64,000 nt of DNA, from IMG/VR virus record IMGVR_UViG_3300025141_000062, positions 1-64,000 of that record; one strand, written 5' to 3'. This document shows positions 1,407-22,400 of this stretch, piece after piece (position 1 is the stretch's first letter; each line of letters begins with the position of its first letter). Source of the DNA: a virus. A program made the position numbers and the translations under genes. Under the pieces are notes generated by a model. It was not told the origin of the DNA. It made no database searches and was given only the letters and a program-made list of their open reading frames with translations.

Positions 1407-2378
1407 GTGGCAGGCATATTAGATAATAAAACTAGAATAATGGACGTAGTCTTAACAGACGAGGGAAAGCGTCAAATTACATCTGGAGAGTTAAAAATAG
1501 AGTTTGCTACTTTTTCAGACGGACAGACATTCTATCTAGGTGACATAATAAGTGGATCAGATGATGCAGCATCTAGGCTTTATCTTGAAGCATGTTCGCT
1601 TCCGAGAGACCAGATAGCGTTTGAGGCATCTGATGCAGGAAGCCTATCAACATTTACAGGAGGTGACATAGAGGTTTCAGGCGATGGAACAATATATTCT
1701 GGAAGTGCATCATCTAGACTATCTCCGATATCCAGCGGATCTATTTTTGCAAGCCTTGTAGATACAGTTCTTTCATCATCTATAAATAATTTTAAAAACC
1801 TTCAGACGATTGGAACAAAGGGATTTTTTGATAGTGATGAATTTGAAACCGATACTGACTATTTTGACTTTTATATATCTTATGAGTCTCCCTTTACAGA
1901 GCCTGCAACTGCAACAGCTGCACTTGATTGCATAGAGCCCTTATTTATGGACTATAGACTCAGCCATATTCCTGCATTTGCATTTTTACCACCTGTAATT
2001 CCTGCAGACAAGACTACAAGCGGTGTTTCATCAAACTGGGGAACATATTCTGACCTAAGTCAGGCAAGAGTTACTGAGTGGTCAGATCTTCTTTCAAAGG
2101 TATGGCCAAATTATCCAGATCCGGATTCAATTCCACAATATAGTGAGCTTAACTTTACAAATACTTCAAACTCTAATAATCTAATGTGCCAAATATTTGA
2201 GTCAGGCGGGGTATCTGACAATAGGCTAAAAAAGCTTGACGTTATTGACTTTGGAGAATTTACACTAGAAAATGAGCCAACAAAGCATGCTTTTTTTGCA
2301 GGTAAGGTATTTATAGATAGTGTTGGACAACCTACATTTGTTAACTTATTTACAATTGTATTTGAAAAGGAGTCATAG
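1407..2378 (+). CDS. putative virion structural (baseplate-associated) protein, paralog of 12370..13074
   Basis: GTG start after GAGG. N-terminus MAGILDNKTRIMDVVLTDEGKRQ resembles MGFLDHSTNNIILDAVLTDKGRELL. Confidence 0.55.
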   Translation: MAGILDNKTRIMDVVLTDEGKRQITSGELKIEFATFSDGQTFYLGDIISGSDDAASRLYLEACSLPRDQIAFEASDAGSLSTFTGGDIEVSGDGTIYSGSASSRLSPISSGSIFASLVDTVLSSSINNFKNLQTIGTKGFFDSDEFETDTDYFDFYISYESPFTEPATATAALDCIEPLFMDYRLSHIPAFAFLPPVIPADKTTSGVSSNWGTYSDLSQARVTEWSDLLSKVWPNYPDPDSIPQYSELNFTNTSNSNNLMCQIFESGGVSDNRLKKLDVIDFGEFTLENEPTKHAFFAGKVFIDSVGQPTFVNLFTIVFEKES

Positions 2379-3389
2379 GTGAAAATAAGTCTACCAACAA
2401 TAAGTGCTGTTTCATCAATAAGTGAGAAAATTATAGAAATTGAAGACGGATCAGACGGAAGAACATACTTTAACTATGAAATTTCAGTAGATGCAGATAC
2501 AGTTATGCTATTGGGAAATGATGTATCTATAATCTCTATTGTGCTTGTTGAGTCACTTGGATCTTCTCCCACAAGTGACTTTAGAAAGCTTGCAAGAGGA
2601 GATCTATCTCCAGCTGGACCGGAAAATATAAGAAACTTATATTCAGTAGATGAGTCTAGTAGTGGTGATTTATCAGCCATGCAATTTTCACCTTCTCTTA
2701 CAGTTGCTGATAGAAAGAAAATATTATTTTCTAAAAATAAAGCAATTGCAAGATCGATCATTAAAAATGAAAATCAGCAAAAAGCGCATATATCTAAAAA
2801 TAGTCAAAAAAGAAGAAATAAAAAAATAGGTGAGGCTAGCATATCTGTAAATTCATCAATTAATTCAGATGTTAAGAAAGAGATAGCAAGACAAAAATTA
2901 AAAAATTCTATAGTATCTAGTACAGGAGATACAATTTCTAAAAATAGCTCTGCTAATAATGTATTTTTTGATGGCGGATTTAAAATATCACAGATTAATA
3001 TTTCTAATATTCCCAGCTTTACTTCAAAAAACTTGAGCGAAATACCAATAATTGATTCACTGTTTATTCAAAAAAGAAGCCAAAGCATTCTATCAAACAT
3101 AGGAAATACAGAATATGTTAGAGATAGTTCTGGAAATGTTACAATTTCAAATAATTCTAAAAATATAAGTGTATCTACATCACAAGACGCACTGCAGGGT
3201 GTTCTAGAGAGGTCAGGAAATGGAACTATAGAAAAATCTCCTGTAGAGCAAACATTCAGCTCTGCATGTAAGTCAGCAATTATAAAATATGGAATGTCTC
3301 CAACGAAAATTATATCAAAAGATATATCAGAAATTATTAATTCTGCATATGATAATTTTCAGGGAACACTAACTAAAAAGAGGTCCTAA
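2379..3389 (+). CDS. hypothetical protein (S/I/K/N-rich); may be the N-terminal part of a fusion with 3389..5260
   Basis: 336-aa ORF, AGGAG upstream of the GTG start. Confidence 0.55.
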   Translation: MKISLPTISAVSSISEKIIEIEDGSDGRTYFNYEISVDADTVMLLGNDVSIISIVLVESLGSSPTSDFRKLARGDLSPAGPENIRNLYSVDESSSGDLSAMQFSPSLTVADRKKILFSKNKAIARSIIKNENQQKAHISKNSQKRRNKKIGEASISVNSSINSDVKKEIARQKLKNSIVSSTGDTISKNSSANNVFFDGGFKISQINISNIPSFTSKNLSEIPIIDSLFIQKRSQSILSNIGNTEYVRDSSGNVTISNNSKNISVSTSQDALQGVLERSGNGTIEKSPVEQTFSSACKSAIIKYGMSPTKIISKDISEIINSAYDNFQGTLTKKRS

Positions 3390-5260
3390 TGTCTAAAGTA
3401 AACGATTCACTATTAAAAGCTCTTGAATATAGGCAGATTTTAGGAACTCTTCGACATGGAATTGAAAAAATCCCATCAGCTTCTCCGCAAAATGCATCAC
3501 AGGTTTCAAAAAATAAAAAAATATCTATGATGACAAGGACTACGTCTGAAAGCACAAACATCAACACAAGCATCCAAGTAAGCACAAATAAAAACTTCTA
3601 TCTTAGTCTTAGGCTTATTAATTCAAATGGAATCATTGTTCAATCTGAGACAAAGAGCATAGATCATAATACAAATATTGACGATTTATATTCTTCAACA
3701 ATAAAGCCAAATATTTCTGCACAAAGACTAAATGATTCAACAATGAGAATATCTGTCAATCAAATGGATCCAAACTCAAATAAGGTTATAGTCCTATACA
3801 AGACAATAGACAATCAGACATTTTCTAAAGGGTCTGGATATAAGAAGATTGGTGAATATGATGCAAAACTTAAGGGCGATGCTATTGAAATAAGCAAGAA
3901 TATCTCTCCAGGGTCACACGTAATAGTAAGGGCAATATGCATATCTAGAAAGGGAATATATGGTTCATTTTCCGATGTTGTTGTTAAGCCGTCTATAGTA
4001 CCTTCTGACTATATGCTAGATGATAAAGACTCCTCTATATCCATATTTTCAAGAAACACAGGCACAGGGATCATTGTTGAGATACCAAGAGTTGTGGGTG
4101 ATCCAGTTGCTGTTAAATTTTTAAAAAGAGAGGTCACAAACACATCTAGCTCAATTGACAAGTTTAAGATATTGGACAATAATAAAAATGAGCTATTTCA
4201 TAAAAACAAACCTTTTCAAATAATTGACAAGGATGTCCATGACGGGCACACATATGAATATAAGTGTAAGCTAATATTTAAAAACGGAACTGAAAGACAG
4301 TCAAATAATAGCTCTATATCAAAAAGGGTAAAGCCATTTGACTCAATAGGCCTATCTTTAGACAGCCCCTCTGTCGCTCGTCTTGGGAGAGAGGGAAATT
4401 ACTCAGTCGCTCTAAACTGTGATGTCTCTATTCCGAGCTCTGATGCAGACACAGTAAGGTCAGTATTTTCAAATCTAGGTCTTTTAGATTTATTTTCATC
4501 TGAATTTGAAGACGTTAAGTCTCAATTTGAAACAATCTCAATGGTTAAGATTATGAGGCTTGATGTGACAACAGGTGAGATTTATGATTGCGGCGAATAC
4601 CCTGCAGGATCTTTTACAGATAGGGGAGATTCATTAAAGGGAAGGCCATGCCCAGTTTCAGGTTCTGAATATATATACATTGTCAAGACCCTAATAAGAG
4701 TCCCAGATCAAGTTATTTCAGAAATTAAGACAGCTCAATCATACAGAAATTCAAATAAATTTGACAAGATTCAATCGGCAGTTTCAGGTAGAGATGATGG
4801 TTCATCAATTGATCCAAACTTTAGTGAAAAGTTTTTTACACCTATTGCAATTAGAAGGTCTACAGTCTCCTATGGCATTGCGCTAGTTAAAAATCATGCT
4901 GGAAATACATTTGAAATAGGTGAAATCGGTGTGGAGAAAATAGTAAGAGTTTCAACTCCAAAAAAATCTATATCCATTAGGCCAAAAAGAATTTCCGTAA
5001 ACTTTAGAAAAGAGGTAATTGTAGAGTGGAGAGTAAGAGGCGATATCAGTGAAATTGATCACTTCATAATAACATCAACAAGAAACGGTGTAACAGTTCC
5101 GACAGGTGTTCATCACTCAACTTCAAAAAATAGCTCATTTAAGTACGTTGACACAAATCAGCTAAAAATTCCAGGAGATGTTACATATGGAATAATCCCT
5201 GTATTTTCTAATTATGATGTCGGATTACAGACAAGTTTGGGAAATGTGTCAATTGACTAA
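3389..5260 (+). CDS. hypothetical protein with Ig/fibronectin-III-like beta-sandwich repeats
   Basis: FN3-like strand motifs DKDVHDGHTYEYKCKL, GSEYIYIVK, VEWRV...TYGIIPV. Confidence 0.5.
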   Translation: MSKVNDSLLKALEYRQILGTLRHGIEKIPSASPQNASQVSKNKKISMMTRTTSESTNINTSIQVSTNKNFYLSLRLINSNGIIVQSETKSIDHNTNIDDLYSSTIKPNISAQRLNDSTMRISVNQMDPNSNKVIVLYKTIDNQTFSKGSGYKKIGEYDAKLKGDAIEISKNISPGSHVIVRAICISRKGIYGSFSDVVVKPSIVPSDYMLDDKDSSISIFSRNTGTGIIVEIPRVVGDPVAVKFLKREVTNTSSSIDKFKILDNNKNELFHKNKPFQIIDKDVHDGHTYEYKCKLIFKNGTERQSNNSSISKRVKPFDSIGLSLDSPSVARLGREGNYSVALNCDVSIPSSDADTVRSVFSNLGLLDLFSSEFEDVKSQFETISMVKIMRLDVTTGEIYDCGEYPAGSFTDRGDSLKGRPCPVSGSEYIYIVKTLIRVPDQVISEIKTAQSYRNSNKFDKIQSAVSGRDDGSSIDPNFSEKFFTPIAIRRSTVSYGIALVKNHAGNTFEIGEIGVEKIVRVSTPKKSISIRPKRISVNFRKEVIVEWRVRGDISEIDHFIITSTRNGVTVPTGVHHSTSKNSSFKYVDTNQLKIPGDVTYGIIPVFSNYDVGLQTSLGNVSID

Positions 5261-5281
5261 TATTAAGAATAGAGGTGTGAA

Positions 5282-8200
5282 ATGTCAAAAGGTGTAGAGA
5301 TAGAGTCAATTCCCACATCTGCAGCTTGTGTCTGCAAGGGAACAATTATTAAGACACAAAGGGGAGACATTCCAGTAGAGAATATTGAAGTCGGTGATAG
5401 GGCATTTACATATAATTTTAATGAAAGAAGGCTTGAGTACTTTGATATACCCTGGATAACAGGGCCTAGAGATGTTGAAAGATACGTCAGAATTGTTACA
5501 TCACAGGGATATGAGATTAAATGTTCTGAAACACATCCAATTTGTAGTGATGATGTTTTATCCTGGGTAATAGATGCATGTGAAATGAAGGTGGGAAATA
5601 GCCTATTTGTGCTACATGAAGGTGAGATTGCTAGAGATACAGTCAAAGATATTGAAATATGTGATCAAAAGACAACAGTTTATAATTTTGAAGTAAGTAA
5701 GGTTCACACATATCTAAGCAATAATATATTGTCACATAACATGGCAGCTGCAGGTGCAACAGGCTCATCATCACATGGTGCCAAAACAGCTAGATATGCT
5801 ACCGGAACATTTGTCGTGCTAGGGGGAATGTCATCTGAAGAAAGCAGCTCTGAGCCTGGATCTACAACGGAAAGTACAACAGAGTGGGTGTCAGAATATC
5901 CCGGAGAAGGAACATCTTCAATTACATTATATACACACGGATCTACTGGAAAGGTAGACTTTATAGATTCTATTTCTGAAATACTTGAAGAATTTACAAG
6001 TCCAGCAAGAACTATCGGATTATCAACAGGTGCACCTGAAATTATAGCAAGCATAGACTTTGTTCCTGTCTATAATAGTGACTCTTCAGACGACGTTAAT
6101 ACAGAGGTTAAAGACTCTCTTTATCAAAGTGCACTACTTGATACACTGACTAGAGAGGCAACTAGAAACTCTCTAAGAAAAATTATAGATAATGAAGATG
6201 GTGTAACAGACACAATAATATCGCAGATAGGAGATCAGCTTTCAACAATAAGCTCATATAGTGAACTTTCTGCAGTCATATCAAGTCTCAATAGCAAAAG
6301 ATACTATACGATGGGGCTAGGTGTGGGTGGTGACTTATCTGCAATATATTATGATCTGTATACAATGTTTAGATATCTAAGAGATGTTTTTGACGTAAAT
6401 TTCTCAACAGGCGATATGATACCAGCATTCATGGAAACAGACGCAACTGATACAAGAAATCTCGGATCAGAAACATATCTATCAACAGAAAATTCTGGAC
6501 CGCTCGGGGCAGCTGCTACTTCAATTGCATATTTTTTTAAAAATTATTTAAATTTTTCAGAAGATGCATATGCAAGCTCATCTGCAACTAAAATAGTTGG
6601 ACAGATTGTACAGGACCTGAGAAGGTCAATATTTATGTCATCTCCAATAGCAGCCATGGAGGGCTCTAGCTTTTCATATGCCACTGAAGATGGAACATCT
6701 GATAGGGCAAATACGCTAATCCCGTATACTGTTGTCGACGATACAGATGCTGATTATTGTAATATGTCATCTACAAATACTTCAATAGCTTATTTAAATA
6801 AAGCATATGAGGATATTGGAACTCTTGAAGGTGTTGTAGACGAAGATGGAAATCTAATATCGCTATTTGGAATAAGCCAGGATAATTATACTTCTTTTGT
6901 AAAGGGCTTGCCAGATTCTGGTGTAGAGACAGTTACATCAATTCTTCACATTATCGGTCGCGAGATAAATCTGTCATTTTGTAATCTTATGCCTGAGGTT
7001 CATAGCATAGTAAATAGTCTAACTGGTGACTCAAGCTTCTACATAGACCAGACAGATCAAGCAAATTCTGCAAGCGTGCCTGGTCCACTAGAGATGATAA
7101 ACAAAGTCCTTGGAAATATAGCAGGATCTCTGGGATCATCAGACCACACTCAAAATATTGAATCAATATCAACACTTATAAATCCTTCATTCACCCCTAC
7201 CGCAGCTGACGGATCAGAGGCTTCAAAGATATTTATGTTTGAGAAGTTTTCAATAGACGATTCATTTGGCATAGATGCAATTGCTGGATATGATGCCTTT
7301 GCTGGAGATCTTGTCAGCGGAATTAGAGACTATGTGGACACTGGTACGATGACATTCTCATCTCTATCTGAGTGGAGCAGTGACTGGGCAGCAAAGGGAT
7401 CATCAATAAGACATCTTATTCCACTTATGATCGGCGGCGCGAGAGGTCAAACCGCCCTCCCAGCACATATGTTCAACTATCTCGCTCAATACATCTTACA
7501 AAATCAGATAACAACAGACTACGGCCTCGAGGGCTATCTTCAGTCAGATTCAGGTAGAGAAAATCTAGACGAGCTAGAAATGATAAGGCTTTATGTCATG
7601 AAGCTCGCTGGAGAAAATCCAACAGTAGGATACTATCTAGCAAGATATCTTGATCTAAGATTTTATATGCAAGCTCTCGATGAGATACCAAAATTTTCAG
7701 CATTTGGATCAAGTGAGACAGGCTCATATGACGCAGTTGTTGATGAAGATAGGGCAAATAACTTAGATATCTCTTCTTTAGATAGCGATCTTATGTCAAA
7801 TCTTCAGAGTGTATATAAACAGTTCTATAGTGCAGCGAGCGATCTTGCAACAGAAGTTTTTAACGTAGTTCACGTATCATCTAGCACAGAAGAAAGTCTT
7901 GAATCAGTTCTTGATGAAATAGATGAAAATTTCTATAGAAGTGAAGATGAGACAGCAATCCTTGTAACAACCATGGAGCAAGAAGAAGATTTTGACGTTC
8001 TAGAGACAGTTTTAGGAATTGCGCTAGTCACGCAGGATAACACATCTCTAACAAGATCTATATTTGATCTTCCAGCGCTTATTTTTAATGAATTTATAGA
8101 AGAGGCCGACGGAGTTGACTACTTTGAAGATTTAGGAATGGCTGGCCTCTTATTTCCTCACGAGCCTTCTGTTGAAGAGATGATCGGTTCAAAGTCAGTT

Positions 8201-10165
8201 GAGGATTTTGAATCTAAGGTATCAAACTGGAAAACAACATATAGGGAGCTTTCATCAAGCTGTATGAGAAGCGCAATATCTCACTGTATATCAACAGTGC
8301 TTAGTGATTCAAGCTTTGGGATAAGCAATGCAATTAATTTAGCAATGCCTAGAGATATACTTGAAATCGATGGAGATTCATCGTGGGTAATAGGCTCTGT
8401 AATCCATATAGACTATGTTAAGTTTACTGAATTTTCAGTTGCCGTTGCAAATATACTAGATGAGAATGTTACATTTTCCGGAGATATGCTTCTTGTTGAT
8501 GTAGATGCAGAAGCAACAGGTGAATCACTAGCATCTACTGCTCATACATATTTTTCTAGTAATTCAGACACGTATATGTCTACAGACGGAACGTGGACGT
8601 CAATAAATACAGTATTTTCTGCTCTAGCAGAAGACTATGCAACAACTATAGGGCTTGCAGAGATTCCATCACTTATAGCTGGAAATATATCTCAAAGATA
8701 CACTGATCTCCAAGCTGTTTTTAGCTCTTCTGGCTTTAAGAGTGCAATGCACATTACAGATATGCTTACACAGTCATGTCTTTCAAATGAGACATCGCTA
8801 TACGGCATGGACTATGATGACATATTTTCATCAATTGTGTCAAAATTTATGACGCCAGAGGGTGTATCGTCTATGTACGTTCATCGAGCAAGGGCACTGC
8901 TCCTATCACCGGGAGGATGCTTCGATGACGAAATAAGCCAAGAAGGTGTTCAGAACAGCGGCGAAGATCTCTTAATGCCCATGTCAGAAGTAATACCGCA
9001 GAGCTACCTAATAGAAAGAGTTATTCCATTTACGAGAATTGCAAATATAAATGGCGAAGTTTCACTTACAGGAGATCCAAGCACAGATAGAAAGAAAATT
9101 ATTACAGTCGGAATTCCTGCCGGACTATGCGAAAGGTTGCGTGAGCAGGCTTCACAATACGCTGGAGACGGAATGGGTGAAAGCAAGGTTTATGAGAATA
9201 GCTCCTTAATTAATATAAAGATATTTAAGAAAGATCTTGATGTGGGAAATGTGTACTACTATCCCATGAACTTTCTATTTGACACATCGCTTTGGGTAAA
9301 TCCCGGCATACAGAGTGTAGAGTCGATAACAAGCGATATCTTTGGAGGAACAGGCTGGTACTCTCCATCTGAAGTTGAGTACGACACAGCAGACCAAGAA
9401 ACTGAATTACTTCAAGGCATGGGCTGGGTTTATTGCCATATACCTCCGAGAGGGGATGGACCTGCAGCAACAGGAGCTTCTGGCAATCTATACTCATCAT
9501 ATGACCTTGAAAGTAACCTTAGAATTGTTTCAAATAAGTTCGATTCAGATGAGGTATTTAAAAATCACGCATACGATAGGTTTCTAAAGTCATACATAAA
9601 GCTCATGTCCGGACTAGATGTAAATGAAAATAAATTTAACCTATTTAAAGATGCTACATCTACACAATCAGATGTCAGCTCCGGGGTAGGGAATAACGTT
9701 ACAGCTATCGCAGAAGCCCTCTCAGGGTATGCTGATCTATCTAGTTCTGAACTTGACAACCAAGAGAATGACACTATGAAGCTAGATATTCTTAAAATAT
9801 TGAAGCATGGAATAACAAATAGCATTCTAGGTGACTTCTCACCTTCGACATACACAGCAGATAGAATAGTTGCCTGTGCAAGGCAGACTTATGCACTTTC
9901 TAGTGATAAGTACATTAACCAGATATACCTACCTCAGATATTTGATAGAATATTTTGTATGATTATAGATCCAGATGCATTTGTACTTAGCGGTGAGACA
10001 GATGATGGTGGTTCTGACTTTCTCGGCGATCTTTCTTCCGCCGGCATAGATGTTGACTATAAATCTGAGCTATTTAATATTTACGCAACAGTTGAAATAG
10101 TTTCAACGACAGATGCCACAGCATATACGTCGACTAATATTGATGATGGAAAATTTACAACATAG
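5282..10165 (+). CDS. large acidic putative virion protein with an N-terminal Hint (intein-like/BIL) domain
   Basis: Residues 16-153 carry block A CVCKGT, block B CSETHP and blocks F/G VYNFEVSKVHTYLSNNILSHN. The remainder is D/E/S-rich with no recognised motif. Confidence 0.75.
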   Translation: MSKGVEIESIPTSAACVCKGTIIKTQRGDIPVENIEVGDRAFTYNFNERRLEYFDIPWITGPRDVERYVRIVTSQGYEIKCSETHPICSDDVLSWVIDACEMKVGNSLFVLHEGEIARDTVKDIEICDQKTTVYNFEVSKVHTYLSNNILSHNMAAAGATGSSSHGAKTARYATGTFVVLGGMSSEESSSEPGSTTESTTEWVSEYPGEGTSSITLYTHGSTGKVDFIDSISEILEEFTSPARTIGLSTGAPEIIASIDFVPVYNSDSSDDVNTEVKDSLYQSALLDTLTREATRNSLRKIIDNEDGVTDTIISQIGDQLSTISSYSELSAVISSLNSKRYYTMGLGVGGDLSAIYYDLYTMFRYLRDVFDVNFSTGDMIPAFMETDATDTRNLGSETYLSTENSGPLGAAATSIAYFFKNYLNFSEDAYASSSATKIVGQIVQDLRRSIFMSSPIAAMEGSSFSYATEDGTSDRANTLIPYTVVDDTDADYCNMSSTNTSIAYLNKAYEDIGTLEGVVDEDGNLISLFGISQDNYTSFVKGLPDSGVETVTSILHIIGREINLSFCNLMPEVHSIVNSLTGDSSFYIDQTDQANSASVPGPLEMINKVLGNIAGSLGSSDHTQNIESISTLINPSFTPTAADGSEASKIFMFEKFSIDDSFGIDAIAGYDAFAGDLVSGIRDYVDTGTMTFSSLSEWSSDWAAKGSSIRHLIPLMIGGARGQTALPAHMFNYLAQYILQNQITTDYGLEGYLQSDSGRENLDELEMIRLYVMKLAGENPTVGYYLARYLDLRFYMQALDEIPKFSAFGSSETGSYDAVVDEDRANNLDISSLDSDLMSNLQSVYKQFYSAASDLATEVFNVVHVSSSTEESLESVLDEIDENFYRSEDETAILVTTMEQEEDFDVLETVLGIALVTQDNTSLTRSIFDLPALIFNEFIEEADGVDYFEDLGMAGLLFPHEPSVEEMIGSKSVEDFESKVSNWKTTYRELSSSCMRSAISHCISTVLSDSSFGISNAINLAMPRDILEIDGDSSWVIGSVIHIDYVKFTEFSVAVANILDENVTFSGDMLLVDVDAEATGESLASTAHTYFSSNSDTYMSTDGTWTSINTVFSALAEDYATTIGLAEIPSLIAGNISQRYTDLQAVFSSSGFKSAMHITDMLTQSCLSNETSLYGMDYDDIFSSIVSKFMTPEGVSSMYVHRARALLLSPGGCFDDEISQEGVQNSGEDLLMPMSEVIPQSYLIERVIPFTRIANINGEVSLTGDPSTDRKKIITVGIPAGLCERLREQASQYAGDGMGESKVYENSSLINIKIFKKDLDVGNVYYYPMNFLFDTSLWVNPGIQSVESITSDIFGGTGWYSPSEVEYDTADQETELLQGMGWVYCHIPPRGDGPAATGASGNLYSSYDLESNLRIVSNKFDSDEVFKNHAYDRFLKSYIKLMSGLDVNENKFNLFKDATSTQSDVSSGVGNNVTAIAEALSGYADLSSSELDNQENDTMKLDILKILKHGITNSILGDFSPSTYTADRIVACARQTYALSSDKYINQIYLPQIFDRIFCMIIDPDAFVLSGETDDGGSDFLGDLSSAGIDVDYKSELFNIYATVEIVSTTDATAYTSTNIDDGKFTT
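5327..5740 (+). other. Hint domain (138 aa, no homing endonuclease); +1 residue is Met
   Basis: Starts TGT (Cys16), ends CAT AAC (His-Asn), followed by ATG at 5741. Confidence 0.85.
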
Positions 10166-10174
10166 GAAAATAAA

Positions 10175-12271
10175 ATGACACATGGAATCAGCAGCGATGA
10201 ATCTGACATTCAGTCACTTATTGAATCATCGTATTCATCTCTTCCATCAAAGGGATTAAATGTATGTGATCTTGATATCCCAGCTGATGTAGTGACGTCA
10301 TTTCAGTATAATTACTTTACAAAAGATGAGACAACTTCAAGAGATCAAACATTTAAGGGCGAGTCTATATCTTCATTCTCTACTGTAAGCGAAGACGCAA
10401 CACAGGAGGAGATTTTAGTTGCAAAATCTCAATACGATGTTCCAAGATTTAATAAAATATCATGGTCAGAAGCTATTTTAGCCTCTAGAAACTCACTTAT
10501 GTCAGAAGCAGGTGTTACAACTGAAGAAATGGGAACTCCAGATGTTTCAGTTTCTGATAATATTTCAAATGTCATATACGAAGAAGCGCTAACTTCATAT
10601 CAGTATACCGGAATTACAATGCAAGATCAGCAAGGCCTAACATGCTTAGAGGAAATTGCAAAAATAGCAATAGACACATCAGAGCTTCCTATTGAGTTTT
10701 CAACACCTGAGACATCTTCTCCCTCTTCTGACTCAAACTTAGATGTAATTAATGCATATCTAGAAGCTGTGAGCGATGGATCATCTATGGACGGTACGGC
10801 AAAGGAGATGCTGAGATCAGCAATGTCAAACTATCAAAGTTCAGGAGATTTTGGATTTGTAAGCAGAAGAGATGAGGAGCTTGAATATTTATCACAAAAT
10901 CTTGCATCTCACGGATCTGCAGTTGACATTGGAATGTCAATAAGCAATGTGCTTGCAGATAGATGTGCAGACTCTTTGATTTCAAACGGAGGAAGCCTAT
11001 ATTATGAAGAGGCATCGAATTCAAAATCAGTTCTTGATCAAATTGCTAATTCTGCAATATCACTAGAGGTTGCTGGAAGAATATCAGAGGATGATTATGA
11101 TATTTCTGGAACTCCTGTGGTAGTTGATACAATTCAAAGTGACACAGGAATGAATAATTCTGATAGTAGCTCTACTTTATTTTCTCACACTTCTGATATT
11201 GTTGGATATATAGTTGAAAAATTAGAATTTGATACTTCTGGAAATATATTATCATTTAATCCGATAGCAGTTGATGGAAAGTCAACAACAAATATTCTTG
11301 ATGTAAATGTTCTATACGGAGCATCTTACAAATATAGAGTAAGATCTGTAGCGTATATTGAATTTGACGCTATAAACGTGTTTCCAGGAAATGAAGCAGA
11401 AAATACAACTGTCAAATCAGGATTTTTATTTGCCTCAAGAGCATCACAGTGGTCAGAAGTAAACTGTATTGAAACTGTTCCACCAAGACCGCCAGTAGAT
11501 ATCGGCTTTATATACGATGGAAGTAACTCTTCTTTAAACATTAACTGGACACTTCCCATAAACAAGCAAAGAGACATAAAGCAAATTAATATATTTAAAA
11601 GATCTTCAACTCTAGAGCCTTTTGGATTAATTAAGTGTTATTATTTTAATGACTCTACGACTCTTACTGCTACTGATGAAATAGCTGATCCTGACTCTTT
11701 AATTCTCGATGATAAAAGCACTCTCGATGGAGCGTTAATTCAAGTTGTTGACGGTTCACCAGGGCTTTTTCATGATTATGATTTTGGCATTGACAGTTCA
11801 TCAATTTACGCACTAACCTCAGTAGATGCAAGAGGCTTAACATCAAACTACTCCCAGCAATTTAGAGTGACATATAATAAATTCAACGCTCAGATTCAAG
11901 TAGAGCTAGTGTCTAGATCATATGCCCCAATACCATATCCAAACTATTTTATATCACAAGATACCTTTATTGATACAATGAAGATTTCTAATTTTGAAAA
12001 AATGACAGTATATTTTGATCCAGAATATCTAACTGTCAATGAGGCAATTTATGATGATGATGGAAATATTTCAGAAGATGCAGACGTAAATCTTATATCA
12101 ACTCATCAAGATAATCCATCATATAAAATATCTATGATAAATCTTGATAATCAGAAATCAAAAAATATAGATATTTATGTTAGAGACATAAGAGATGCAA
12201 CTTTGCAATCTGATGAAGGGGAGGAGTATTCTGTGAAAACAAGAATAGCATCTCTCTTTAGTGATATTTAA
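10175..12271 (+). CDS. acidic hypothetical protein with FN3-like domain(s), putative virion protein
   Basis: Motifs DVNVLYGASYKYRVRSV, PPRPPVD...LNINW, YALTSVDARGLTSNYS. Confidence 0.55.
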   Translation: MTHGISSDESDIQSLIESSYSSLPSKGLNVCDLDIPADVVTSFQYNYFTKDETTSRDQTFKGESISSFSTVSEDATQEEILVAKSQYDVPRFNKISWSEAILASRNSLMSEAGVTTEEMGTPDVSVSDNISNVIYEEALTSYQYTGITMQDQQGLTCLEEIAKIAIDTSELPIEFSTPETSSPSSDSNLDVINAYLEAVSDGSSMDGTAKEMLRSAMSNYQSSGDFGFVSRRDEELEYLSQNLASHGSAVDIGMSISNVLADRCADSLISNGGSLYYEEASNSKSVLDQIANSAISLEVAGRISEDDYDISGTPVVVDTIQSDTGMNNSDSSSTLFSHTSDIVGYIVEKLEFDTSGNILSFNPIAVDGKSTTNILDVNVLYGASYKYRVRSVAYIEFDAINVFPGNEAENTTVKSGFLFASRASQWSEVNCIETVPPRPPVDIGFIYDGSNSSLNINWTLPINKQRDIKQINIFKRSSTLEPFGLIKCYYFNDSTTLTATDEIADPDSLILDDKSTLDGALIQVVDGSPGLFHDYDFGIDSSSIYALTSVDARGLTSNYSQQFRVTYNKFNAQIQVELVSRSYAPIPYPNYFISQDTFIDTMKISNFEKMTVYFDPEYLTVNEAIYDDDGNISEDADVNLISTHQDNPSYKISMINLDNQKSKNIDIYVRDIRDATLQSDEGEEYSVKTRIASLFSDI

Positions 12272-12369
12272 GACATTTTGGTAGAGAAGTGGCTTAAATT
12301 TCAATCTTTAGAAATTATTTTACTGGCCTACTTGGCCAAATGTATATTTACAATCAGGAGTGAAAATAA

Positions 12370-13074
12370 ATGGGTTTTCTAGATCATAGCACAAATAATA
12401 TTATACTAGACGCTGTCCTTACAGACAAGGGAAGAGAGCTTCTTGCTAGAAATGATGGATCATTTCAAATAGTAAAGTACGCTCTTTCTGACGATGAAGT
12501 AGACTACACTATTGTAAAAAAGTTTGGAAGAACAGTAGGAAAAGAAAAAATTGAGAAAAATACTCCAGTCCTAGAGGCTCTGACAACATCTCAAGTTGCA
12601 CAAAAATATAAGCTAAGAAGTGTATCAGTACCAAATCTGGTAAGACTACCATCACTTGGACTAGACGGTGTAACTTCTGATACAATTAGCCTGGATATTG
12701 TCACAACTAGAAATAGTGATGTAACAGTTAAGCAGACAATAGGTGCCAGTGAAGTTATTCCAAATGAGCTAGTTGATCAGGTATATAGGATAACAGTAAA
12801 TAACCTATTTCTTCAACTATCAGGACAACGACCAGTTTCAATAAATTCAGATAGCATAGCGACATATCTTGTTACAAGAGGTTCAACTTTGGATACCGTA
12901 ACTGGAGGTTCAAAAGTAGTTCTTGGTGTAACTGTTAAGTCATCTCTTACTACTACAATGTTTGACACGTACGGAACAGCTAGTGACAAAACTGTAATAA
13001 ATTCTTATATTACAGTTACCGGACAGCAGTCAGGATCAGTCAAAGACTTTCTGGTTTCAATAAGCAAGACTTAA
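12370..13074 (+). CDS. putative virion structural (baseplate-associated) protein
   Basis: AGGAG SD, ATATTTA motif upstream, N-terminus paralogous to 1407..2378. Confidence 0.55.
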   Translation: MGFLDHSTNNIILDAVLTDKGRELLARNDGSFQIVKYALSDDEVDYTIVKKFGRTVGKEKIEKNTPVLEALTTSQVAQKYKLRSVSVPNLVRLPSLGLDGVTSDTISLDIVTTRNSDVTVKQTIGASEVIPNELVDQVYRITVNNLFLQLSGQRPVSINSDSIATYLVTRGSTLDTVTGGSKVVLGVTVKSSLTTTMFDTYGTASDKTVINSYITVTGQQSGSVKDFLVSISKT

Positions 13075-13097
13075 TAGTATAATTAAAGGCAATAAGC

Positions 13098-14381
13098 ATG
13101 GCAACATATAAAGAAATCTCTTCTGCTGACATTAAGACAAGCAGATCAGTTTTAAATCAGCTAGTTGATATAATTCAAGAAGATATCTCAGGCTCAACAA
13201 CTAGAAAAAAATATCAAGTATTCGTAACGGGTGGTGTAGGTCCTGGTGTGACTTCTTCACTGTTTCAGACAGTCTATGATCAAGACTATACGCTTCAGAC
13301 GGCAAATCCTATCTTTGATATGACACTTGGGATATATTCTGGAAGCGGAATAGTTTCTGCTTCATCTACAGGTCAAGATAGTGCTGGCAAGCTATTGTTT
13401 CCATCATCTTCTCTCATGATGAGAGAGAAGGTGAACGTATATAGACAATTTGCACAGCTTCTATTGGGAAATGCAACACATCAGTTCTCAACACCCTTTT
13501 CAACATCTCAGCCGGCAGCAGATGATGATAAAATAGATGCAGCATTATTTCTAACTTTTAAGCGACTGTTTTCAAGAGACAAGATCAAGAGAGAGACATT
13601 TGCAATGAAGTTCTACCAGTCTGCATCAAGAGCACCAGGTGCAGGTGGTGGATTTAACCCTACACACATTAATAATGGTGTAACTTGGGGGCCTAATATA
13701 AACCTTGGAACTGTGTCTGGATCTGCAATCTATACAGATGTAGGATCTTCAACAGCAAAAGAAACATCTGTCGGAGGTGAGGTTGGAAATATTGTCGACT
13801 CATCAAACACAAGTAGAAATGTAGGGCTCCTATTCTATGATATGGGAATAGCAGTTCTTGATGTGGAGAGCGTAATATCTGGATCACAGCATGTAAGCGG
13901 AACAGTATCGGCAATGAATAGCGCATCAGGAAACGGTTATGCTGCAGGTCAGATTGTTATAGGAGATGTAAGAAAAAGCGGAAGAGGAACAGGGACACAC
14001 AAAGCAAAATTTGTTCCAGATTTTATAGTATCTGGATCAATGGATGACGTCTTAGATCACTTTGCATCTGTAAGATTCCAATCAGGATCACTTACGGCAA
14101 TGACTTTTCAGAATGTTACAAATATTAATTCAACACTTGTATTTTGCAGAGCTACATCTGATGAGTTTAATTACTCATCAAATCCAACTTTTACTGACGA
14201 TACAGGAAGAATAAACTGCATAGACAGCGGAGAGGAAACTACTCAACGTACATTCTCATTTCCAACTACGATTGGACTATATGATGGAAGAAATCAACTA
14301 CTTGCTGTTGCAAAGCTTAGCAGGCCAGTAGAGAAGAATGACGAGAAGGATCTTACATTTAGAATTAGACTTGACTTCTAG
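13098..14381 (+). CDS. putative baseplate/tail-fibre attachment protein
   Basis: C-terminus TTIGLYDGRNQLLAVAKLSRPVEK...FRIRLDF resembles tail-collar/fibre attachment domains (DUF3751-like). SGS-rich. Confidence 0.55.
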   Translation: MATYKEISSADIKTSRSVLNQLVDIIQEDISGSTTRKKYQVFVTGGVGPGVTSSLFQTVYDQDYTLQTANPIFDMTLGIYSGSGIVSASSTGQDSAGKLLFPSSSLMMREKVNVYRQFAQLLLGNATHQFSTPFSTSQPAADDDKIDAALFLTFKRLFSRDKIKRETFAMKFYQSASRAPGAGGGFNPTHINNGVTWGPNINLGTVSGSAIYTDVGSSTAKETSVGGEVGNIVDSSNTSRNVGLLFYDMGIAVLDVESVISGSQHVSGTVSAMNSASGNGYAAGQIVIGDVRKSGRGTGTHKAKFVPDFIVSGSMDDVLDHFASVRFQSGSLTAMTFQNVTNINSTLVFCRATSDEFNYSSNPTFTDDTGRINCIDSGEETTQRTFSFPTTIGLYDGRNQLLAVAKLSRPVEKNDEKDLTFRIRLDF

Positions 14382-14401
14382 ATCTATAGGGAGGTGGGCC
14401 A

Positions 14402-17400
14402 ATGTCTATCATTAAGATTACACCAGACCTGATTGAACTAGTTAGCCTAAAGACTCATCCTAAGGTAAAGTTTGTCTCATCATCAATAGGTGTTGTTAAT
14501 ACAGAGGTAACGTCCAGCTCAGGTATAGTAAGTCACTCTGGAACTCTAGGAGAGGTAAGCCTGCTCCCTAGGACTAATAGAGTGATAAAGTCAACAAGGC
14601 AGTTTGATATCACATCTGCACTATTTAATGAAGACCAGCTAGAGTTAGCTATAAATTTAAAAAATGCTGTAACTTTAACAGAAGCAGGTGAGACAGATAT
14701 ACAGTCGTATATGGGACATGCTACGCCCTGGCCACACTCTTCAACTGAAGGCTCTATTGACGGTGCCCCTGCATCAGAAGCATACGATCAAGGGTATATG
14801 AGAGCAGTCAATCAGGCAAAAAAGAGCTCAAAACAGCTAAAGACATTCCAGATATCAAGATTTAGACCGTCATTTCTTTTTGAAGATGAAGGATTTACTA
14901 ATCATGAACTACTTACTGCATCACTACCTGCAAAGACAAAAGGTGTAAAGAGCCATATAGAGAATGTGCTTTTAAAGAAATATAAGTCTCACTACACTAA
15001 TCCAAATTATTCATATACAAACTATCATTCATTAAATTTCTTTACATCGTCTCATACAAATACGCTTCACGGCCATAGCGTCGTATCAAGTTCTGTTCTA
15101 ATATATCCATGTATGACATCATCAAATAGAACTGATCAAGGACCGCATCTCACAGGGACAACAAGGTTTACTGGAAGATACTGTCCAGAAGGTGCATTTA
15201 CATTTGACTTTTATATAAACCCAAGATATTCAAATGATGGTCCAGTGGGACAGGGCGCTGGCGACTCAAATAATTCATTTAATGCAGGCACAATATTCCA
15301 TATGAGCTCTACATTTGCTGTATCGCTTATTTCAGGATCTAGTGTAGATGAGTTTGGTAAGTGTGACGGATATAGGCTCCTACTCCAGCTTTCTCACAGT
15401 GCAGGCTACCCTCCTTCAAGATTTACAATAACTGCATCTAGCAATAATCCTGTATATAATGGAAATCTTGCAAGATATAAGGATAGAGACTTTAGATATG
15501 CGTTTCTATCACCAGATAACTCTCTTCAAAGAAACAAGTGGCATCATGTTGCAATTAGGTGGGGTACCAAAAATATAAATGATGGAACGGGATCGTTTTT
15601 TATAGATGGAAATGAAGTCTCACGCTTTTGCATACCTGAGACAAGCATAGCACAAACTGTATTTACACTAACTGATGATCACGCCGAAGACAATAGGGTT
15701 AACAGCTATTTAAGGGCTGCAGGAAAGATAGACGCTGATTCTAATCAACCCATATCAGATCCAGATGCATTATTTATAGGAAACTTTTATGAAGGAAAAA
15801 ATACAACTGGATCTAATGCAACTTCAATTAATAGATTTTTCAACTGGAAGGCACAAAATCTAGAGGGATTCTCACAGGGTCAAAATTCTGGACAGCAAAA
15901 AGGTCTCCATATTGAAGATGGTGATCCAAAGTCTTATGCCTTTAATCATCCACTAAATGCCGAGGTTCATGATCTTAAAATTTACGCATCATACAGGACG
16001 TCAGATCAAATACTAACAAGCTCTCGTCATGGACCTGAGAACTCTGATGATCTTTTATTTTATCTTCCGCCATTTTTTGTTAAAGAGGGCTTTGATAGAA
16101 GATTTTTTGGGACAGCAGTCCAGACAATTAAAAAGCATCAAGTTGCTCACGATCAGGCAAACGATTCATTTTTTGACACATATCTCTCAAGACCGTTTAA
16201 TGCAGGTCTTTCTATGACAGTTGACTCAACACTGATAAATCTTGAGAACTTTTGCAGAGACCTTGTTCAAGGTGTGTATCCGAGACTTTTATTCCTAACA
16301 GCTTCTGCAATATCTGATGTTGAGATGCAAACACAATATGACAATAAAGAGAAACCTTGGCGATTTCCAAATGGAAGCGTGTCTGCACCACAAAGAAGAG
16401 TTTCAGATCTTCTATTCTCAACTGCATCACTAGCAAAGAGATGCCTAACTATTCTTCCATGTGATAACGGTAAATTCCTTCCAAACTATTCACTAATTCT
16501 ATCTGGTGCAAACGATTCCAAGCCAACATCTGGCTCAGAGATGTCTCTATTTGTTGATGACTACGGTCACAGTGATATATCAAGCATAAGTCTTAAAAAT
16601 TTATTTACTCAGACACCAACCGCTATGACACTTATTCCAGATGGTGGCAGCTCTGTTGACACAATAGTTGATACTTTAAACTACTATACTGGAACAGGTG
16701 TTTCTGGACTATATGATAGCTGGAGAGGCTCATCAAGCGGCTTTGGCGACGGAGACATGTCAGATGAAAATACCGGCCCACTTGCAAGCCCAGATAGGCC
16801 AAACGGTGCAATCTGCTTTGAGTCCACTAGCTCAATACCAAGATTTATGGTGTATCAGGCAACACAGGACTCATCTAGCAATGAGGTTGTGATATTTAAT
16901 ATTCCAAATTTATTCTATGGAAATAGAATTTCTCCAGGAACATTTAAACTGTCTGACAAAAATCTTTCTGGATCTAGAGGCAAGGTGTCAATGACACTAA
17001 AAGATGATGGATTTGGAACACTGTACAGGGCTGATTCAATAACTGAAAATGCTAAGTTTAACTGTGTTGGAAATATATTTTATGAAGAGGGACTTGTTTT
17101 AATAAAGTCTCCTCACCTTGTTCACTTTGGAAAGAGAGAATTTGAGATGGAGTTTAAAGGGGACCAGAATATTCATGTAATGTCTGTCAATGTTCCCTGT
17201 GAGCCAGGTCTTGTAAACAGCTCGTCTAATCCAGCGTTTAAGTCGCTATCTGCATCATTTGATGCAAATGACTATAATAACGAATTCGTCTATATCACGT
17301 CAGTATATCTTCATGATGATAACTTTAACGTCATTATGAAGGCCAATCTTGCACAACCAGTTGTCAAGAGAGAGTCAGACGAATTTTTATTTAGAATAAA

Positions 17401-17413
17401 GATGGATTTTTAA
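14402..17413 (+). CDS. LamG/concanavalin-A-like domain virion protein with a C-terminal fibre-attachment domain
   Basis: LamG-type motifs FTFDFYINP, NKWHHVAIRW, FFIDGNEV, LFIGN, VHDLKIY. C-terminus paralogous to 13098..14381. Confidence 0.65.
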   Translation: MSIIKITPDLIELVSLKTHPKVKFVSSSIGVVNTEVTSSSGIVSHSGTLGEVSLLPRTNRVIKSTRQFDITSALFNEDQLELAINLKNAVTLTEAGETDIQSYMGHATPWPHSSTEGSIDGAPASEAYDQGYMRAVNQAKKSSKQLKTFQISRFRPSFLFEDEGFTNHELLTASLPAKTKGVKSHIENVLLKKYKSHYTNPNYSYTNYHSLNFFTSSHTNTLHGHSVVSSSVLIYPCMTSSNRTDQGPHLTGTTRFTGRYCPEGAFTFDFYINPRYSNDGPVGQGAGDSNNSFNAGTIFHMSSTFAVSLISGSSVDEFGKCDGYRLLLQLSHSAGYPPSRFTITASSNNPVYNGNLARYKDRDFRYAFLSPDNSLQRNKWHHVAIRWGTKNINDGTGSFFIDGNEVSRFCIPETSIAQTVFTLTDDHAEDNRVNSYLRAAGKIDADSNQPISDPDALFIGNFYEGKNTTGSNATSINRFFNWKAQNLEGFSQGQNSGQQKGLHIEDGDPKSYAFNHPLNAEVHDLKIYASYRTSDQILTSSRHGPENSDDLLFYLPPFFVKEGFDRRFFGTAVQTIKKHQVAHDQANDSFFDTYLSRPFNAGLSMTVDSTLINLENFCRDLVQGVYPRLLFLTASAISDVEMQTQYDNKEKPWRFPNGSVSAPQRRVSDLLFSTASLAKRCLTILPCDNGKFLPNYSLILSGANDSKPTSGSEMSLFVDDYGHSDISSISLKNLFTQTPTAMTLIPDGGSSVDTIVDTLNYYTGTGVSGLYDSWRGSSSGFGDGDMSDENTGPLASPDRPNGAICFESTSSIPRFMVYQATQDSSSNEVVIFNIPNLFYGNRISPGTFKLSDKNLSGSRGKVSMTLKDDGFGTLYRADSITENAKFNCVGNIFYEEGLVLIKSPHLVHFGKREFEMEFKGDQNIHVMSVNVPCEPGLVNSSSNPAFKSLSASFDANDYNNEFVYITSVYLHDDNFNVIMKANLAQPVVKRESDEFLFRIKMDF

Positions 17414-19460: not shown

Positions 19461-22400
19461 ATGAGGATAATTCATATTGCTGATGTCCACTGGCGTGGAC
19501 TCTCCCGTCACGAAGAATATAGGAAATGCTTTTTAGAGTTTTTTAAAAAAGCAAAAACCCTAGATCCCGATGTAATATATGTTGGCGGAGATATTGTGCA
19601 CTCAAAGACTCAGGGTATATCACCTGAGCTAATTGATAGTCTCTGCTGGTGGTTTACAGAGATGTCTAAAATATGCCCTGTTCATATCATATTGGGAAAT
19701 CATGACGGCTTGATAAGCAACAAAGATCGCCAGGATGCTATTAGTCCAATAATATCAGCTCTGGATAACTCTGAATTACATCTATATAAGGAATCAGGTG
19801 TTTATCCTACGGGTGTACCAGGATTTAACTGGTGCGTCTTTTCATGCTTTGATGAAGAGCGGTGGGATGTAGTCACTCCTGTAGACGGAGATGTCAATAT
19901 TGCATTATACCATGGCGGAGTGTGGGGATCAAAGACAGATATTGACTGGGCCATAGAGGGAGAAATAGATGTTGAATTTTTCTCTAACTTTGAATTTGCG
20001 CTACTTGGTGATATCCATAGAGTTCAATTCCTTAATGATAAAAAGACTGTTGCATATTGCGGATCTTCGATTCAGCAAAATTACGGAGAAGATCCAGATA
20101 AGGGATTTTTATTTTGGGATATAAGAAGTGCAAATGATTTTGATGTTAAGTTTTATCCAATACCACATTTAAATCAATTTGTAACAATTGACTGGCAGGG
20201 TAGTGTAGAAAAGACCTTGTTAATGACAGAAAACTGCCAACAAGAATCTAGATTTAGAATAAGATCCAGCCAAAAAATACATCAATCAGATATCGCTCTA
20301 CTTTATACAAGAATAAAGGCAACGAAGTCTGCATCTGAGATAGTTTTCAAAATAGATCAGGCCCCAGATGCAGAGATAATTCAAGCACAGGGAGAGGTAT
20401 TTTCTAAAAAGAACCTTAGAGACTTTTCTGTTCATCAGAAGTTAATGACATCATATTATGAAATTACTGAAATTCCTGAACATACTTGGAAGAAAATGGA
20501 AGAAAAGATATCAAAATATATTTCTTCAATATCAAGAATGGATGAAGTTTCTAGAAATATAAGGTGGTCAATAAATAAGCTTTCTTTTGATAATACGTTT
20601 TCCTACGGCAAGGAAAATATTTTAGATTTCAATAAGCTTGGTGGGATAACTGGGATATTTGGAAAAAATAGGCAAGGAAAGTCTTCGATAATCGGATCTT
20701 TAATGTACAGCCTGTACAACACAACAGATAGAGGTGGGATAAAAAATCTTCACATTATCAATACTAGAAAGAAACACTGCAGAGCAATAGCAGAAATAAA
20801 TGTAAATGGGTTGTTATACAGGGTAGACAGAGGCACAGTAAAGCACCAGGCAAGAAAGGGACATGTATACGCAACTACAAGTCTCAATATATCAAAAATA
20901 GATAAAGAGGGAAATGTCATAGAGGATATGTCAGGTGAGCAAAGAAGAGATACAGAAAAGATTCTAAAAAAGCTCATAGGCACATCTGAAGACTTTCTCT
21001 TAACTTCGTTGTCTTCTCAAGGTGAGATGAATACATTTATTAAGGAGAAGGCAACTTCTAGAAAAAATATATTAAGTAAATTTCTTGACTTGCAAATATT
21101 TGATCAAATGTTCAATATGGCAAAAGAGGAGTCGTCAGGGATACGTGTAGAGGCAAAAAATCTTCCAAAAATAGACTGGGATTGTGAGATAGATAAAATA
21201 GTCTTAGCAATTGAAAAGAAAAGAGAGAGCTCATGTCAGTATGAGACAGATTTATTAAAGCTTAGATCAAAGCAGCAAGATCTCAAAATTGAGCTTGCAA
21301 CATCTCCAGATAGAGACCTTGTAACAATAGACGATGTCAATTATCAAAAGAAGCTTATTTTAGATTCCAATAAAAAAATTACCACACTAAATAAAAAATC
21401 CCTAGATCTATCTTGTGAGATAGAGCTATCAGAAGAAAAAATTAAAAAAATTAAACTTGTAAAGTCTCAATTTCCAGTAAGCGAAATTAAGCAAAAGATA
21501 AAAGACTTAAGGACAGCAAGAACAGAGCATCTGAAACTAGAGCATGAGACAGATAGGCAGAAAGCAATACTTTCAAATCAAGAAAAGTCAATAAAAAAGC
21601 TAGAAAACATACCATGTGGAGACTCATTTCCAAAGTGTAAATTTATAAAAGATTCTTATAAGAATAAGTCAAAAATAGATGAGCAGAGACAGCTAATTTC
21701 AATATTGTCAAGTCAGATAAAAGACTCTAAAAGATACATAAGACTTTTAGAAAAAGAAAGCTTAGAAGAAAATCTTAAAAAGCATGAAGCACTTATTAAA
21801 AAAGAATCAATACTTAGCGTTGATATTTCATCAAAGAAAATAACTCTCCACGAGACAGACTCTGAGATATCACAGCTAAGCAAAAAGATAGAATCTCTAA
21901 ATGATGATCTATCAGAAATGGAAATGAGAGTAGTTGATGATGATTCAGAGAACACTGCAATAAAAATAAAGAGAAAGCTATCAGATATTTCATATAAGAT
22001 AGCTGAAATTGATGCAAAAAGAATTTCTCTAGTTGAGCAAATTGGAAGTAGTGAAACTAGGTTGTCAAACCTAAAGTTAGAAAAAAAGAAGTCAAAAGAT
22101 ATATCTGACAAGCTACAAGTTTACGATCTTATTCTTCAAGCAGTTTCTAAAAATGGAATACCTAGACAGATAATGAGATCTCAATTACCCGTTATTAACT
22201 CTGAGATTTCAAATATTCTTCAAGGTATAATGGGGTTTACAGTAGAGCTGGAGGCAGACTCTGATTCCAACTCAATGGATATCTTTATTAACTACGGAGA
22301 TTCTCGTAGAATAATTGAACTAGCCTCTGGTATGGAAAAGATGATAGCGTCGCTTGCAATAAGGGTTGCATTAATCAATGTTTCTTCTCTTCCTAAGACA

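Follow-up and report, generated by a model that had tools for sequence, protein, structure and literature searches.

A Hint domain ahead of a giant phage protein

The stretch of DNA described here, positions 1 to 64,000 of the IMG/VR virus record IMGVR_UViG_3300025141_000062 (in its full length of 64,000 nucleotides referred to as the window), contains a plus-strand open reading frame (ORF) at 5282–10165 whose 1627-residue product consists, as read from the sequence, of a leader, a Hint domain, and a body of 1474 residues. ATG 5282 is the sole start codon in the open frame and is preceded by in-frame stop codons at 5258, 5264, and 5270. Because the frame opens only at 5273, the leader cannot exceed 15 amino acids; read-through from the ORF lying upstream in the same frame (3389–5260) is ruled out by the three intervening stops. 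An AGAGGTG motif resembling a Shine-Dalgarno (SD) sequence, likewise read from the plus strand at 5271–5277, serves this start codon, and a similar motif is present at most genes of the window. The leader or N-extein, MSKGVEIESIPTSAA, is encoded on the plus strand at 5282–5326 and ends with Ala15 at the −1 position. It is followed by a 138-residue Hint domain of the type-A bacterial intein-like (BIL) or PT-HINT kind (5327–5740, plus strand; Cys16 to Asn153) and, at +1, by Met154, whose codon (ATG at 5741–5743, plus strand) is probably the ancestral start codon of the body. The body (5741–10165, plus strand) begins with a non-conserved linker rich in Ala, Gly, Ser, and Thr (5741–5968, plus strand), the first part of which is predicted to be disordered (residues 157–183, pLDDT below 50). 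A preliminary description of this DNA had reported the same build, a 15-residue leader, a complete Hint domain of 138 residues with Cys1, block-B His, and terminal His-Asn, and a methionine directly behind it, and sequence, Pfam, and alignment confirm it; the absence of a nucleophile at +1, which it had also pointed out, is evident from Met154.

Identity and catalytic residues of the domain

Within the Hint, block B is Ser82-Glu-Thr-His85, block F reads VYNFEV..VHTY, and block G is ILSHN with the terminal His152-Asn153. The Pfam family PT-HINT (PF07591) matches residues 16–153 with 35.1 bits against a gathering threshold of 27.7, the profiles Intein_splicing (28.5 bits) and Hint_2 remaining below threshold. 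A phmmer search of the PDB with the Hint finds 2LWY, a BIL of Clostridium thermocellum, at an E-value of 1.7e-9, the alignment extending to the final His-Asn. In an alignment of 22 viral Hints (A5), the other members of which are only 21–35% identical to the window Hint, Cys16, Gly20, Thr21, His85, Asn135, His152, and Asn153 are invariant, and in block B (Ser82-x-x-His85) serine replaces the threonine of most sequences. The same alignment forms the basis of an AlphaFold model of residues 1–200, with a block-mean pLDDT of 85–98 for residues 21–150, 81 for the Cys16 block, and 65 for the His152-Asn153 block. Confidence is low ahead of the Hint and beyond residue 156; leader and linker are predicted to be disordered. 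Foldseek again places 2LWY first (target-normalised TM-score 0.87, rmsd 2.3 Å, E 5e-11), followed by the Tetrahymena BUBL BIL2 domain and then by gp41-1 (target TM 0.89), DnaB mini-inteins, and Hedgehog 1AT0 (0.82), all with a probability of 1.00, and 2LWY is the best match of the window Hint in sequence as well as in fold. The sequence traits of type-A BILs are found in the window Hint: an N-terminal Cys, a block-B His, a terminal His-Asn, no Cys, Ser, or Thr at +1, a location in a variable region, and absence from orthologues. By every sequence-level criterion that can be tested, the domain is a Hint of the type-A BIL or PT-HINT type. Its GC content (0.345 versus 0.39 in the body) lies inside the gene-to-gene spread of the window and is uninformative on a recent foreign insertion.

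The body and its Hint-less homologues

The body belongs to a family of 1100–2000-residue proteins in uncultured large phages, as seen by phmmer, in the family alignment A1, and from syntenic orthologues in the contigs L004, L002, and G003. With the first 1200 residues after Met154 as query and 1.8 billion representatives as target, phmmer returns 16 proteins, namely the orthologue P0002 (33% identity), a fragment identical to the window protein, and distant relatives of 1100–2000 amino acids that have C-terminal motifs in common. P0002 and the window protein align in two BLASTP segments (E 5e-65 and 3e-59), and a hidden Markov model (HMM) of the family matches orthologues in G001, G002, and G003. 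The family motifs seen in A1, PEI..DF.P in the N-terminal part and VGIPAG, VYKRDL, and FDRVF..VDPD.F in the C-terminal part, are present in the window body. Word-based searches retrieved no homologue, whether the query was the body, the Hint region, or the Hint by itself; relatives were detected only via phmmer and the pattern scans described below. With tblastn, neither the whole window protein nor protein P0007 matched any named phage, and the A1 profile had no hit in LR756508 or in Flavobacterium phage immuto, two phages with the same type of capsid.

None of 17 body homologues (the 16 phmmer proteins and the L002 orthologue) contains a Hint detectable with a locally built Hint HMM, and the orthologue in G003, Hint-less by inspection, begins MATSTD. 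P0002 is encoded in L004, a contig syntenic with the window and identical to it in gene order, where its ATG lies one base after the upstream stop codon. In BLASTP, window residue 230 pairs with P0002 residue 67, and the homology of P0002 begins only there; the equivalent of the P0002 start is window residue 164, ten residues beyond Met154. The PEI..DF.P motif lies 99 residues past Met154; in Hint-less homologues, 12 of which align at this motif, its distance from the start is 80–387 residues. No SD-like motif is found in the 20 nucleotides ahead of ATG 5741, in line with the preliminary description, whereas most genes of the window have one. The Hint-less homologues, the start of P0002, the position of the motif, and the missing SD at 5741 support the view that leader and Hint were placed ahead of the former start of the body. 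The preliminary description had proposed such a placement, and Hint-less homologues do begin near Met154. The string TAACATG, shared by the gene junction in L004 and the Hint/body junction, is probably a chance likeness, as the CAT-AAC codons for His-Asn yield it.

As regards function, the body has no match by sequence in PHROGs, Pfam, or the PDB, and a protein atlas search with it gave no usable match. A model of its C-terminal 398 residues (pLDDT 58.5) has no convincing match in Foldseek or VIA-align, the best Z of 6.3 covering a helical hairpin only. Among 12 body homologues scanned with Pfam, 11 show no family and one shows only a sub-threshold match to Spc7. The neighbouring genes scanned (1407–5260 and 10175–17413), which lie in a conserved block from 1407 to 17413, are equally anonymous, without a family match and with a sub-threshold Laminin_G_3 in 14402–17413 only. 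The label of a virion protein, given to the body at the outset, is thus unsupported, being drawn only by analogy from capped GpJ-like proteins (see below) and from the position near structural genes.

Occurrence of the fusion in marine samples

The stretch is present in marine, seawater, or other aquatic metagenome runs of 16 studies dating from 2017 to 2025. Contigs of four independent marine metagenome studies, which exclude the probable source sample, span both the junction of the upstream gene with the leader and the 5740/5741 junction without indels, and no joined Hint-less form occurs among the contigs of these four studies. Because independent contigs bridge the Hint/body junction without indels, the fusion is real, and the bridging of both junctions in four studies rules out an assembly artefact or a Hint-less population variant. 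The changes listed in the Hint of a diverged strain (run X6) are a single conservative one, R50K, against three synonymous substitutions at Asp55, Gly61, and Asn153 (AAC to AAT), a pattern that speaks for the functional reading. Runs X2 and X4 contain a 200-nucleotide contig (word depth about 200) whose only match to the window is 5959–5993 (35 nucleotides with 4 mismatches); it probably derives from an unrelated abundant organism with a similar short stretch.

Recurrence of N-terminal Hint caps

Scanned by pattern with the window Hint and two PT-HINTs, IMG/VR yielded 68 loci, and a metagenome scan with the three closest Hints yielded 23. The closest Hint forms the N-terminus of a 1142-residue protein (L023:5941–9366, record IMGVR_UViG_3300012952_003952) on the 242-kb contig G003. 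It is 36% identical to the window Hint over 168 aligned residues spanning the domain (BLAST, E 7e-34; 39% over 138 Hint residues in tblastn) and keeps Cys1, the block-B His, and His-Asn. The build is also the same, with a 20-residue leader, a Hint ending in VLSHN, Ala at +1, and a linker rich in Gly, Ala, and Ser, and the body of 984 residues has no detectable similarity to that of the window. The gene directly upstream of the L023 capped gene is 33% identical to window 1407–2378, the phages being related, and directly downstream follows the giant-family orthologue (E 5e-16), whose start is Hint-less. Judged from these alignments, Hints of one lineage cap unrelated genes that are neighbours, a different one in each of the two related jumbo phages. 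That the catalytic residues of the L023 Hint are kept at a divergence like that of the flanking orthologue (36% versus 33% identity) argues for retention of function. A second, truncated example of the L023 type is found at L096:3330–3713; the leaders of L023 and L096 are acidic, 20–21 residues long, and begin MGGGLDDH.. and MGGGWPGL.., respectively.

Leaders of 20–25 residues and one or two Hints also precede GpJ-like tail-tip proteins carrying Phage-tail_3 and FNIII-A_GpJ domains (L048:1144–4086, L073:5926–8862, and L070:2686–5019, the last with tandem Hints separated by GGGGKGG). The lambda homologue of these proteins, GpJ, is the tail-tip protein solved in PDB 8IYK. Behind its Hint, L048 can be aligned to lambda GpJ and J-like tip proteins from close to the beginning of these proteins (query residue 124 versus chain residue 114); since the residue numbers nearly match, the cap stands ahead of what is natively the N-terminus of a bona fide tail-tip protein. 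In L046 and L049, the Hint caps a tail of 99 amino acids.

Under table 11, 42 loci were tabulated, 34 of them found in IMG/VR and 8 in the metagenomes; their +1 position is occupied by K, A, G, T, D, R, I, V, or N, and by Cys at L069 only. In a tree of 28 Hints, the window Hint groups with L023, L093, L024, and L095 (support 94/95, not starred); the Hints of this group occupy N-terminal, near-C-terminal, and internal positions, and N-terminal caps also occur in two other parts of the tree. The loci L055–L059 at first sight resemble short ORFs, and L056 an N-terminal cap; they are not counted as caps, as TGA stands at conserved Trp positions within the Hint and the Hints are internal under code 4. 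So translated, the proteins have about 2800–3150 residues and Hints flanked by Gly/Lys-rich linkers, and they probably belong to phages of hosts that read TGA as Trp. A C-terminal arrangement is found in further viral ORFs of 587–594 residues (L030–L039) and 916 residues (L041–L043), where the Hint ends in His-Asn, a single Lys, and the stop codon.

Relation to known Hint systems

Type-A BILs and PT-HINT domains (2LWY, PF07591) share with the window Hint the length of about 138 residues, Cys1, the block-B His, the VYNF..HTY block, the terminal His-Asn, and the lack of Cys, Ser, or Thr at +1; like type-A BILs, the window Hint is seated in a non-conserved part of its host protein. Known BILs and PT-HINTs are found in secreted, hypervariable, or polymorphic-toxin proteins, either internally or close to the C-terminal end; their N-extein is long, and a toxin often follows. 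The window Hint, in contrast, has an N-extein of 15 residues, a conserved phage protein of 1474 residues as C-extein, and no toxin domain. A pretoxin-HINT module of polymorphic toxins is ruled out, the C-extein having no toxin match in Pfam, PHROGs, or the PDB. In the Ruminococcus phage protein P0019, a Hint is followed by a tail resembling a WHH-type nuclease, the WHH motif being recognised by inspection.

Class-1 mini-inteins (gp41-1, Ssp and Npu DnaB, Pho RadA) have the same fold and the same four blocks and match with E-values nearly as good as that of the BIL. They differ from the window Hint, which has Met at +1, no conserved insertion site in an essential enzyme, and no homing endonuclease; a canonical class-1 intein is ruled out by Met154 at +1 and by the placement before a non-conserved N-terminus. 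The Alcaligenes phage Afa-NA1 'tail protein' is a parallel in that a BIL-like Hint, presumed to remove itself and with Met at +1, lies near the end of a large phage protein. There, however, the Hint is C-terminal and the bond at the Cys1 thioester is the one that matters, whereas for the N-terminal Hint of the window it is Asn cyclisation that matters for the body. The Afa-NA1 protein (L018:4032–5462) contains collagen-like Gly-X-Y repeats and ends in the Hint with only 12 residues after it, has a match in Salmonella phage Sen-NF, and lies three genes upstream of a gene annotated as 'large intein domain protein'. A man-made parallel also exists: in engineered N-terminal intein tags, a short sequence and a C-terminally cleaving mini-intein precede the target protein, and Asn cyclisation gives a native N-terminus. 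These tags are laboratory constructs in which the N-terminal nucleophile is usually mutated, whereas the window Hint is natural and keeps Cys1.

The literature searched reports inteins in the terminase, helicase, and reductase genes of phages and places BILs in bacterial toxins; nowhere in it was a phage protein with an N-terminal Hint cap encountered. The window Hint departs from the BILs described in its location, behind just 15 residues at the start of a conserved giant phage protein.

A probable self-removing N-terminal cap

In type-A BILs, with His-Asn and without a +1 nucleophile, the N-terminal thioester forms, the C-terminal bond is cleaved by Asn cyclisation, and cleavage products dominate (PMC4031507, PMC7664689), as the preliminary description had stated for Hints of this kind. 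Because the +1 residue is Met154, canonical trans-esterification is excluded, and since type-A BILs without a +1 nucleophile mainly cleave, we regard it as moderately probable that the domain acts as a type-A BIL-like N-terminal cap that removes itself through cyclisation of Asn153. Translation from ATG 5282 would yield a precursor of 15-residue leader, Hint, and 1474-residue body, in which Asn153 would cyclise to a succinimide and the Asn153–Met154 bond would break. The body would be freed with Met154 as its N-terminus, essentially that of the Hint-less orthologues. The Cys16 thioester would separately be hydrolysed or left unresolved, and the leader-Hint part of about 17 kDa would be discarded.

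Several points weigh against self-removal. How fast Asn cyclises differs greatly from Hint to Hint and is influenced by the neighbouring residues. No RNA run is listed among the runs holding the stretch, and the body, being of no assigned family, offers no independent reason for needing a free N-terminus. Type-A BILs, moreover, do not only cleave, as in some splicing the freed amine attacks the thioester (PMC4031507, PMC7664689). Applied to the window protein, such splicing would have the freed α-amine of Met154 attack the Ala15–Cys16 thioester, so that the leader would stay on the body and the Hint would be a harmless, intein-like passenger. Citing Dassa 2004 and Aranko 2013, PMC4031507 credits type-A BILs that end in His-Asn and lack a +1 nucleophile with this ability, the C. 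thermocellum BIL for which such ligation was described is the very domain that the window Hint matches best (2LWY), and both flanks are small, Ala-rich, and sterically permissive (SAA | MAAAG). We nevertheless deem this outcome unlikely: cleavage products prevail for BILs in the reviews cited (PMC4031507, PMC7664689), and the leader is neither conserved between capped proteins nor represented by a counterpart in Hint-less orthologues.

The Hint might also be left unprocessed on the mature protein, as a domain that is inert or structural or as a fusion too recent to have been purged. Some Hint-like elements are indeed inactive until mutated, and a Magnetospirillum BIL with Tyr at +1 did not splice (PMC4031507). 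Against such retention, which appears distinctly improbable, speak the catalytic residues, all of which are intact and kept in a relative of 36% identity, the synonymous change by which the strain variant preserves Asn153, and the stability of the fusion across samples of 2017 to 2025. In the capped homologues of lambda GpJ, whose N-terminal part lies inside the tail-tip complex, an extra domain of 17 kDa would be hard to fit. There is very little to commend independent initiation at ATG 5741, by which most of the body would be made directly and the fused form would be a minor product, arisen when a free-standing Hint gene upstream lost its stop codon. A methionine at +1 does suit an ancestral start codon, and an embedding-based atlas listed viral clusters of Hint proteins of 150–175 residues, a lead only, by which free-standing Hint genes may exist; yet ATG 5741 lies inside a translated frame and, unlike most genes of the window, lacks an SD-like motif in the 20 nucleotides before it. 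Hardly credible, finally, is a transfer of the 15-residue leader from the Cys16 thioester to a nucleophile on another molecule in the manner of BUBL or Hedgehog domains. The preliminary description had raised such a ligation. It has a distant precedent in the Tetrahymena BUBL BIL2 domain, which ranks second among the structural matches, and Cys16 and the block-B His85 are intact; nothing else in the analysis supports it, the leader being short and not conserved among capped proteins and no partner gene having been identified.

If the cap removes itself, its use could be that of a timer or guard for an assembly-prone N-terminus, which would be blocked until Asn cyclisation, or the cap could simply be a tolerated self-removing passenger; in the former case, we infer, cleavage would time assembly. 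Bringing along a ribosome-binding site, a start codon, and a leader of its own, it may further represent a portable module placed before the starts of large phage proteins. Its hosts would be the giant gene in the window, the neighbour of that gene in a related phage, and GpJ-like tail-tip genes. That leader and Hint constitute a portable, self-removing pro-domain cassette that moves from the 5′ end of one large phage structural gene to that of another and acts as a protease-independent timer or guard is a tentative and, on balance, rather doubtful extension; its portable origin is drawn from few loci only, which also counts against it.

Genomic setting

The window belongs to a 74-kb virus record of an uncultured marine jumbo phage with a CheckV completeness of 21%, and since CheckV puts the 74-kb record at this value, the phage genome probably measures about 350 kb. 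Its phage genes include a T4-type large terminase, a gp20-type portal, a gp23-type capsid protein, two sheath paralogues, and a gp19-type tube protein. The nearest named relatives of the capsid protein are those of Flavobacterium phage immuto, a Microcystis phage, and an uncultured 484-kb phage. In the last of these (LR756508.1), which has the most similar capsid, six PT-HINT-like matches lie between 128 and 262 kb, one of them above the cut-off and two in one 1387-residue frame; no member of the giant family is present. Upstream of the capped gene, the ORFs 2379–3389 (336 residues) and 3389–5260 (623 residues) correspond to a single ORF of 990 residues in L004 (5027–7999), to which each is about 40% identical, indicating that the gene was split or fused. 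Downstream, a single 1045-residue ORF at 19461–22598 combines a calcineurin-like phosphoesterase (SbcD/gp47-like) with SMC/SbcC Walker B motifs (gp46-like); its product is a fused nuclease-ATPase with a homologue in the contig of L024.

Significance

Virion proteins of phages are known to mature via dedicated prohead proteases or C-terminal S74 chaperone domains. If self-removal holds true, an N-terminal Hint that frees a native N-terminus without a protease would constitute a further maturation route for virion proteins and a natural counterpart of the self-cleaving intein tags engineered for protein production. The occurrence of one Hint lineage on unrelated large proteins, encoded by neighbouring genes, and of Hints on GpJ-like tail-tip proteins suggests a movable module, and the cap may possibly serve as a recombination handle for swapping gene starts.

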